Shown: piece by piece, positions 9,090-10,395 of the stretch
Layout of the letters: every line of letters begins with the position of its first letter
How positions within the stretch are numbered: the first letter of the stretch is position 1
Virus record (IMG/VR): IMGVR_UViG_2872678658_000005
Coordinates: 1 to 44,882 of that record
DNA from: a virus
Taxonomy: Duplodnaviria; Heunggongvirae; Uroviricota; Caudoviricetes
Length of the DNA: 44,882 bases
Reading direction: 5' to 3' (one strand)
Notes under the pieces: generated by a model
What the model was told of the DNA's origin: nothing
The model's input: only the letters and a program-made list of their open reading frames with translations
Databases searched by the model: none
Made by a program: the position numbers and the translations under genes

Positions 9090-9904
9090 GTATGGAGCTG
9101 ATGGTTAAAGCGATGAAAATTCGAGTGGGTAATCCATTGCGAAAACTGGTTCTGATCAAGCTGGCTGATAATGCCAGCGATCAGGGTGAGTGCTGGCCCA
9201 GCTACCAGCATATTGCTGACCAGTGCGAGATTAGCAAACGTTCTGTGATGAATCATATTGCGGCCCTTTGTGAGTCCGGGCTGGTAAAAAAAGTCACCCG
9301 GAAAGGTGAAAAAGGTAACTCAAGTAATATCTATCTCCTTCATCTTGATGGTGCAGGAGATTCACTAGGGGGTAGTGCAAATAATTCACTATCTGGTGCA
9401 GCAAATTCACCAGGTAGTGCAGGAGTTGCACCAGGGGGTAGTGCAGGAGATTCACCCAGAACCAGTCACTCTTTTGAACCAGTCAAAGAACCAGTCAATG
9501 AACCAATAGCTGTTGGTGCATCTGCTGATGAGTCTGTGCGAGTTCGTTCAAACCGACCGGAATACTCTCCGGAGTTTGAGCAGGCATGGCTGGCCTATCC
9601 CAAACGTGCTGGTGGCAATTCAAAATCTGCAGCCTTCAAAGCCTGGAAAGCCCGTTTGAATGAGGGGGTAAACCCCGAAACCATGCTGGAAGGTGTGAAA
9701 CGCTACGCGGGCTGGGTATCTGCGATGGGTAACAGCGGCACACAATTTGTGAAACAGGCTGTCACGTTCTTTGGTCCGGATCGTCATTTCGAAGAATCCT
9801 GGGAAGTTCCTGCAGTATCTGCAGCCAGACGCGAGGACCCGTACTTCAAAGCCAGTTACGACAACGTGGACTACAGCCAGATCCCGGCAGGATTCAGGGG
9901 GTGA
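9086..9904 (+). CDS. replication initiation protein (O-like; N-terminal HTH, C-terminal DnaT-like region, 272 aa)
   Basis: N-terminal winged-helix region (WPSYQHIADQCEISKRSVMNHIAAL); iteron-like DNA repeats inside the gene; C-terminal EFEQAWLAYPKRAGGNSKSAAFKAWKARL resembles the DnaT/primosome-type domain. Confidence 0.7.
   Translation: MSMELMVKAMKIRVGNPLRKLVLIKLADNASDQGECWPSYQHIADQCEISKRSVMNHIAALCESGLVKKVTRKGEKGNSSNIYLLHLDGAGDSLGGSANNSLSGAANSPGSAGVAPGGSAGDSPRTSHSFEPVKEPVNEPIAVGASADESVRVRSNRPEYSPEFEQAWLAYPKRAGGNSKSAAFKAWKARLNEGVNPETMLEGVKRYAGWVSAMGNSGTQFVKQAVTFFGPDRHFEESWEVPAVSAARREDPYFKASYDNVDYSQIPAGFRG
9349..9457. repeat. iteron-like direct repeats (putative ori) inside the initiator gene
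   Basis: Repeated GGTGCAGGAGATTCAC and GGGGGTAGTGCA units, encoding the low-complexity GDSLGGSANNSLSGAANSPGSAGVAPGGSAGDSP linker. Confidence 0.5.
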
Positions 9905-10395
9905 TTATGAGTCTTTTGAATGAAGTTCAGAAATTCATTGAAGCCCATCCGGGGTGTACTTCTGGAGACATTGCGGATGCTTTTGCTGGTTACTCACGGC
10001 AGCGCGTTCTGCAGTCAGCAAGCAAGTTACGTCAGAGTGGGCGTGTGGCTCACCGTTGTGAAGGAGATACACGCAGACATTTCCCGCGCCTGACTGAGAG
10101 AGCGCAGGAGCCGGAACCACAATCTGTTCGTGAAACCAGACCTGTGCGCAATTTCTATGTCGGCACTAACGACCCCCGGGTGATTTTGTGCCTGACCCGC
10201 CTGGCTGAAGAACTGGAGTCCAGGGGCTTATTCCGTCGAGCTGCAACGGTGTGGATGGAGGCATTCCGTGAAAGCCACTCCCAGCCAGAACGAAACAATT
10301 TTCTGGCGCATCGTGAGCGGTGCTTACGGAAAAGCAGCAAGCGCGCTGCATCGGGTGAAGAGTGGTATCTGTCAGGGAATTACGTGGGGGCTTAA
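9901..10395 (+). CDS. protein with C-terminal PerC-like domain (164 aa)
   Basis: Motif LAEELESRGLFRRAATVWMEAF resembles the PerC/Pch hallmark (GLWRRAA..W); N-terminal region looks like a winged helix. Confidence 0.55.
   Translation: MIMSLLNEVQKFIEAHPGCTSGDIADAFAGYSRQRVLQSASKLRQSGRVAHRCEGDTRRHFPRLTERAQEPEPQSVRETRPVRNFYVGTNDPRVILCLTRLAEELESRGLFRRAATVWMEAFRESHSQPERNNFLAHRERCLRKSSKRAASGEEWYLSGNYVGA

Follow-up and report, generated by a model that had tools for sequence, protein, structure and literature searches.

The reading frame studied here is an unexceptional copy of yfdN. This accessory gene of the prophage early region encodes a small basic protein that joins an N-terminal winged helix to a PerC-like core. 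The gene lies in a window of 44,882 nucleotides (the whole stretch of DNA analyzed), which represents a lambdoid prophage adjoining proA in an Escherichia coli chromosome. The useful result of our analysis is a correction: yfdN should neither be read as a cryptic helicase loader nor be assumed to activate the LEE. As a discovery the result carries little weight, since RefSeq, Pfam and PHROGs already cover the gene, its assignment to the PerC family and its phage context. What novelty is left concerns the function of a very common prophage protein, a sequence pattern at the end of the upstream initiator, and the pattern of the methyltransferase slot downstream.

The protein matches phrog_1324 ('transcriptional activator') over residues 1–161 with E=1.8e-77, and all 46 relatives match it as well. 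This full-length profile match, together with the winged helix and the PerC-like core, places the protein in the YfdN/SfV Orf40 family (PHROG 1324). The position expected for the family, directly behind the replication genes in an early-right operon, was found in the window and in 12 other loci. The copies in Stx2c, Stx2a and Stx2k phages, mEp460, SfV (Orf40), SfII and SfIV are 92–99% identical to the window protein, while ST64B Sb43 is 68.5% identical, and the K-12 gene is an orthologue. K-12 YfdN (from the CPS-53/KpLE1 cryptic prophage), SfV Orf40, ST64B Sb43 and the mEp460 and SfIV copies are the same gene as that of the window, with no difference of substance: the length (162–164 aa), both domains, the tail and the neighbors (initiator upstream, Dam downstream) all agree. 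In K-12, however, only truncated remnants are left of the initiator upstream (yfdO) and of the dam gene downstream (yfdM), whereas both are intact in the window. InterPro names the family 'PerC/bacteriophage SfV Orf40'. The RefSeq name is 'yfdN: PerC family transcriptional regulator', and Uhlich et al. referred to yfdN as 'the K12 unique PerC homologue' (PMC5931665). The gene has matches in 2726 of the 5426 complete E. coli genomes, the K-12 laboratory strains included. The family is nevertheless narrow, comprising 153 clusters (50% identity) at E≤0.001 among 1.84 billion representatives, about 45 of which have the two-domain architecture.

The plus-strand reading frame is real, and its maximal form in the list of open reading frames opens at GTG 9901 and ends at 10395. 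The dN/dS values against four orthologues (0.11–0.31) indicate purifying selection on yfdN. We consider ATG 9907 to be the likely start codon, because the MSL- N-terminus is conserved across the family and the codon is preceded by a Shine-Dalgarno sequence, AGGGGG (Table 1). The stop codon of the initiator, TGA at 9902–9904, lies 3 nt ahead of this ATG, suggesting that yfdN is translationally coupled to the initiator gene. Its homologues overlap the upstream gene by ATGA or by 4–17 nt, and at the other end of the gene the stop codon overlaps the start of the downstream Dam gene in the sequence TAATG (10393–10397). Between 8800 and 11500, neither a promoter-like site nor a plus-strand terminator-like site was found. 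Judged from these overlapping stop and start codons and from the lack of such sites in that interval, yfdN is an internal cistron of a rightward early (pR-type) operon.

Table 1. Features of the yfdN locus in the window
Feature	Positions	Strand	Description	Basis
O-like replication initiator	9086–9904	+	272 aa: HTH_36 N-domain, low-complexity linker, DnaD-like C-domain	
Iteron-like direct repeats, families D1 and D2	9351–9499	.	inside the initiator gene	repeat search
Initiator C-terminal tail, REDPYFKASYDNVDYSQIPAGFRG	9830–9901	+	initiator aa 249–272; co-inherited with yfdN in E. coli	protein alignments
Shine-Dalgarno sequence of yfdN, AGGGGG	9896–9901	+	within the final initiator codons	sequence read directly
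yfdN-type CDS (likely start)	9907–10395	+	162 aa plus stop TAA at 10393–10395	phrog_1324 over full length; conserved MSL- N-terminus; 95.6% nt identity to K-12 yfdN
Winged helix-turn-helix, N-terminal	9913–10086	+	aa 3–60; basic (aa 1–62, pI 9.8)	pLDDT 92–96
Disordered linker	10087–10170	+	aa 61–88; length and sequence variable	pLDDT 49–74; gapped in alignment
PerC-like three-helix core	10171–10353	+	aa 89–149; helices 90–105, 109–122, 126–148; pI 10.6	pLDDT 95–98
Acidic C-terminal tail	10354–10392	+	subfamily motif W-Y-L-S-G-N-Y-V-G	alignments; low pLDDT
Phage Dam methyltransferase	10395–11048	+	start overlaps the yfdN stop	Pfam Dam E=9.7e-46; TIGR01712 E=1.5e-76
LexA DNA-binding-domain-only protein	11045–11371	+	108 aa	Pfam LexA_DNA_bind E=2.9e-19; synteny
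RusA resolvase	11368–11757	+	constant cassette member	Pfam RusA E=6.6e-15

The surroundings are those of a lambdoid early region. Its minus strand carries int, a xis-like gene, DUF551, YfdR, YfdQ and YfdP, then cI. After cI come cro, the CII-like YmfL, an Ash/Rha protein, a 74-aa ORF, the O-like initiator and yfdN, and these are followed by Dam, the LexA-DBD-only protein, RusA, KilA-N, DUF968/HNH and Q. The initial annotation had called the protein a prophage one and placed its gene in the replication module; the setting in a prophage early region is confirmed, and the architecture of the protein is likewise part of the existing public annotation. The replication module matches the 'Eru6' type of Stx phages. 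This type is defined by the Ash + Rha protein, which in the window has 383 aa (7717–8868; Ash at aa 117–213, Rha at aa 223–308) and lies between the CII-like gene and the initiator. The replication proteins of Eru6-like phages are said to be unstudied, with nothing known of them (PMC8951638). A 25-kb portion of the window is 100% identical to E. coli strains ampC_0069 and 3150. The integration next to proA concerns window 1–1254 and 1459–2622, the latter being the integrase gene, on the minus strand. No stx genes were noted in the window, although the sequenced phages closest to it convert their hosts with Stx2c, Stx2a or Stx2k.

An AlphaFold2 model built with a 46-sequence alignment divides the protein into four parts, with two domains that have no fixed mutual orientation (pTM 0.45). 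The N-terminal domain has the three helices and the beta-hairpin wing of a winged helix, so that the fused winged-helix-like region proposed in the initial annotation is borne out by the model. Both domains are basic. Across the approximately 45 two-domain clusters, the invariant residues all fall within the PerC-like core, and the winged helix is variable; L103, R111 and A112 are invariant throughout the family, and A100 and C139 nearly so. The YfdN-type C-terminus follows the consensus W-(Y/C)-L-(A/S)-G-x-(Y/F)-x-G. Our searches found no solved structure of the PerC-like core that would back a binding mode.

The proposed PerC-like C-terminal domain was also upheld. Pfam PF06069 (PerC) matches residues 98–149 at 35.6 bits against a gathering cut-off of 22.6 (E=1.1e-8), and 45 of the 46 relatives match it too. 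When the profile of the YfdN-type C-terminal domain was aligned with that of the stand-alone PerC/Pch-type proteins by hhalign, the probability of homology was 99.3% (E=1.2e-20), albeit over 56 columns only. The Pfam match is confined to model positions 5–56 of 90, and positions 57–90, the RPP...MGI...FR half, are unmatched. PerC from the EPEC plasmid pEAF and PchA/B/C from EHEC prophages therefore have in common with YfdN a homologous core of about 56 residues, A-x2-LE-x2-GL-x-RRAA-x-W ... R-x4-RR-x2-C, and the proteins are alike in being small, basic and encoded on mobile elements. While PerC and Pch are stand-alone proteins of about 90–104 aa with the second conserved half, YfdN lacks that half; it has a WYLxGxYxG tail in its place, and an N-terminal winged helix not found in PerC and Pch. 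PerC is encoded on a plasmid, and pchABC, though prophage genes, lie outside the early operon, unlike yfdN, which sits in a CI-controlled early operon. The profile search suggested in the initial annotation covered ANR as well as PerC, and only the PerC half of it succeeded. The ANR model (NCBIfam NF033650) matches residues 97–129 weakly, at 18.5 bits, which is below its curated cut-off of 32, and ANR membership is thus not supported. The ANR family (AraC negative regulators, e.g. Aar) resembles YfdN in comprising small helical regulators on mobile elements, and the authors of a PICI study also saw PerC and ANR hits overlap (PMC11773190).

The domain call had come with a lead toward virulence, according to which YfdN would be a PerC/Pch-like activator that, on induction, turns on ler/LEE1 or further host loci of horizontal origin. 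The homology of the PerC core is significant, close relatives are carried by Stx2c, Stx2a and Stx2k phages, and Uhlich et al. saw in yfdN a possible activator of ler and deleted it from their reporter strain, purely as a precaution (PMC5931665). However, a LEE-specific role is unlikely, because yfdN occurs in half of the complete E. coli genomes, K-12 included. Most of the complete genomes that carry yfdN are not known to have the LEE. The homology stops at the core, the C-terminal half of PerC/Pch being absent, and the gene occupies an early operon, not a moron position. Even within the PerC family, members activate, ignore or repress LEE1 (PMC11773190, PMC6265319): activation has been shown for PerC and PchABC only (PMC6265319, PMC5931665, PMC4764244), while neither the group 2 and group 3 Pch nor the PICI PerC-like proteins activate LEE1, one of them being a repressor of it (PMC6265319, PMC11773190). 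We consider a virulence activator of this kind highly improbable.

The neighborhoods of homologues that are 23–48% identical provide a wider view of the gene's setting. All of these homologues occupy the same early operon; they follow cI, cro and a CII-like gene, and stop and start codons overlap. The yfdN-type gene heads a cassette in 13 divergent loci, located behind the replication genes, in the order PerC-like gene, optional DNA methyltransferase, usually a LexA-DBD-only protein, and RusA. The replication genes upstream vary, being HTH_36 + DnaD-like, HTH_36 + Phg_2220_C, or Phg_2220_C alone. Stand-alone PerC-like proteins of 78 and 90 aa, with the same tail and no winged helix, are found in the identical slot. 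The 108-aa LexA-DBD protein has no S24 protease domain and stands beside RusA in nearly all related modules.

The slot after the PerC-like gene holds methyltransferases of four families, Dam (PF05869), MT-A70 (PF05063), D12 (PF02086) and C5 (PF00145), or none. It is occupied in the window (10395–11048) and in L003, L004, L007, L012, L013, L015, L016, L020 and L023. The pattern reflects either an insertion hot spot or a functional link. In the latter case, YfdN might control the cassette by regulating, or acting as a partner of, the downstream methyltransferase or LexA-DBD protein, in the manner of the C-proteins of restriction-modification genes. That most loci have a methyltransferase from one of four families right behind the PerC-like gene, in many cases with codons that overlap, would fit such a role, as would the SfV annotation, which places a dam promoter inside orf40. 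On the other hand, L006, L011 and L018/19 have a PerC-like gene without a methyltransferase, phage cdtI and the EH53 prophage retain dam without a PerC-like gene, and the slot may be a mere hot spot. We therefore regard a cassette controller as unlikely.

The same neighborhoods bear on the statement that the gene sits where a helicase loader would normally be found, which was not sustained. In locus L012 the gene directly upstream of a 40%-identical homologue, joined to it by an ATGA overlap, encodes a lambda-P loader (PF06992), so that a YfdN-type protein and a true loader occur together. Whatever the type of initiator upstream, the gene is accompanied by the methyltransferase/LexA-DBD/RusA cassette, and stand-alone PerC-like genes can fill its place. 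Its position in a loader slot is thus a coincidence of the module in this window, and the position after the initiator is all that yfdN has in common with loaders of the lambda P/DnaC type. As for the protein itself, the searches of Pfam, NCBIfam and PHROGs detected no similarity to P, DnaC, DnaT, DnaD or any loader or helicase, and PADLOC gave no defense hit. Measured against lambda P (PF06992) and the DnaC/IstB AAA+ loaders, it shows neither profile similarity nor a Walker ATPase motif, and the AlphaFold2 model contains a winged helix and three helices but no P-loop fold. We accordingly rejected the identification of YfdN as a loader or replication protein. Of the initial annotation as a whole, then, the domain call stands, and the helicase-loader and LEE leads are not supported.

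Natural losses of the gene also argue against its being required for replication. Phage cdtI has a 396-bp in-frame deletion (corresponding to window 9985–10380) that leaves a 30-aa peptide between an intact initiator and an intact dam; its record is titled 'complete genome', and the phage has been cited as 'an inducible lambdoid prophage' and appears in a list as 'induced from bacteria'. The 396-bp deletion also occurs in the EH53 prophage, which retains only a yfdN remnant, without the C-terminus. In Stx2a_WGPS2, IS629 is inserted after codon 82 of yfdN, and in the corresponding module of phage mEp390 a PerC-like gene is absent altogether. The yfdN-type gene thus appears to be dispensable, if the phages that have lost it are viable, as their record titles suggest.

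Although YfdN is not a loader, it might still assist replication as an adaptor. The initiator upstream matches Pfam HTH_36 (E=1.8e-11) and the replication initiation protein family phrog_270 (E=1.1e-88), and the window contains no helicase, loader or primase gene. YfdN could dock on this initiator, perhaps at the conserved C-terminal tail, and help to recruit or load host DnaB/DnaC at the iterons, thereby taking lambda P's part in loader-less phages. Consistent with such an adaptor, replication genes invariably adjoin the gene on its upstream side, the stop and start codons overlapping. Furthermore, in many E. coli genomes the initiator tail and yfdN form a single inherited block. The boundary of this block is a sharp mosaic junction near 9829, some 75 nt short of the end of the initiator gene; matches to many E. 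coli genomes begin there (query position 744), indicating that the tail and yfdN are inherited together in E. coli. Of the 2726 matching genomes, many have in common with the window only the final ~25 initiator codons and yfdN, which are joined to another initiator body, as in K-12 yfdO and strain EC-129. The tail motif is kept at the protein level, with synonymous codon changes, on initiators with unrelated bodies, and the tail and yfdN co-occur in 56–57 phage records. Where a near-identical initiator precedes DnaC-like and DnaB-like genes instead, in L009, yfdN and the tail motif are both missing.

Other observations speak against such an adaptor. A YfdN about 95% identical to that of the window stands behind initiators with unrelated bodies, mEp390 carries the tail but no PerC-like gene, and in L006 it is the gene that is present and the tail motif that is missing. 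The lambda P gene in L012, the losses described above and the lack of library similarity to P, DnaC, DnaT or DnaD weigh against a replication adaptor as well, and we hold it to be unlikely. The tail, for its part, would more likely recruit a host factor in phages that lack their own helicase or loader.

Some details of these initiators deserve mention. Those that precede PerC-like genes usually end in ...[FY][KR][AS]S[YF]xxxDYSxIPxGFR[GST], and the form SYxxVDYSxIPxGFR[GST] is found in the window and in L007, L011, L013, L015, L016, L018, L020 and L021. An obligatory link between the tail and the PerC-like gene was considered and rejected in view of mEp390 and L006. The L009 locus belongs to a prophage of E. 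coli MS8345 (NZ_CP025401.1, 1995493–2003209). Its initiator gene is 86.5% identical to that of the window over about the first 720 nt, differs in its C-terminal tail, and precedes a true loader and helicase pair, DnaC-like (296 aa) and DnaB-like (466 aa), which replaces the whole yfdN-dam-lexA-like-rusA-kilA segment.

The position of yfdN is also that of lambda ren, directly behind the replication genes with a 4-nt overlap, and YfdN might accordingly be an exclusion or anti-defense factor whose winged helix is related to Ren and which protects the phage from a host or prophage exclusion system. Nine of the 46 family members match phrog_142, 'Ren-like exclusion protein' (best E=2.4e-5), the window protein itself gives a weak profile match (E=0.0027), and hhalign places both N-termini in register. 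However, the hhalign probability is only 9.5%, BLASTP found no match, PADLOC gave no match, and winged-helix families readily cross-match. Moreover, Ren has no PerC-like domain, and the slot can also be filled by stand-alone PerC-like proteins that have no winged helix. A Ren-like function is thus quite improbable, and homology between the two winged helices did not reach significance in direct comparison by hhalign or BLASTP.

Our preferred reading rests on analogy with Pch and is, in our estimation, somewhat more probable than its negation: YfdN, a small basic two-domain protein with a winged helix, linker, PerC-like core and WYLxGxYxG tail, would modulate the nucleoid or transcription during the lytic phase. 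We favor it because Pch acts on H-NS/StpA/Hha silencing and because the winged helix is basic. Pch, which lacks a classical DNA-binding domain, activates promoters only in their H-NS/StpA/Hha-silenced state, and it lowers H-NS binding (PMC4764244). From the structure of the early operon, yfdN would be expressed, and its product made, only once the prophage is induced or a cell infected. On the model of Pch, the PerC-like core could then disturb silencing complexes of the H-NS/StpA/Hha type, while the winged helix could supply targeting to DNA or to a partner. The expected effect would be improved early-to-late expression of phage genes together with altered host expression, not an effect on DNA replication itself. 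The mechanism of Pch may, however, not transfer to YfdN, because the two have only 56 residues in common and the C-terminal half of Pch is missing, with another tail instead. The literature calls YfdN uncharacterized, and our literature search found no YfdN-type protein with an assayed activity; in one screen, yfdN overexpression was among the clones with altered glycogen accumulation.

A broader evolutionary scheme can also be envisaged, which we consider improbable. The PerC fold would originally have been a lytic-phase phage protein tied to the replication module, with YfdN docking on the initiator tail (…DYSxIPxGFRG) and either clearing H-NS-type nucleoprotein from the AT-rich origin and early region or forming a bridge to host replication factors. 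PerC and Pch would then be later exaptations of the isolated core.

The initiator gene itself contains iteron-like direct repeats, which by analogy with lambda O are probably the phage origin. They comprise five units of ~15 nt (GTGCA-n5-TTCAC) and three copies of GAACCAGTCAA, and they fall in the part that encodes the low-complexity linker of the initiator. Phage cdtI carries one additional repeat block in its initiator gene.
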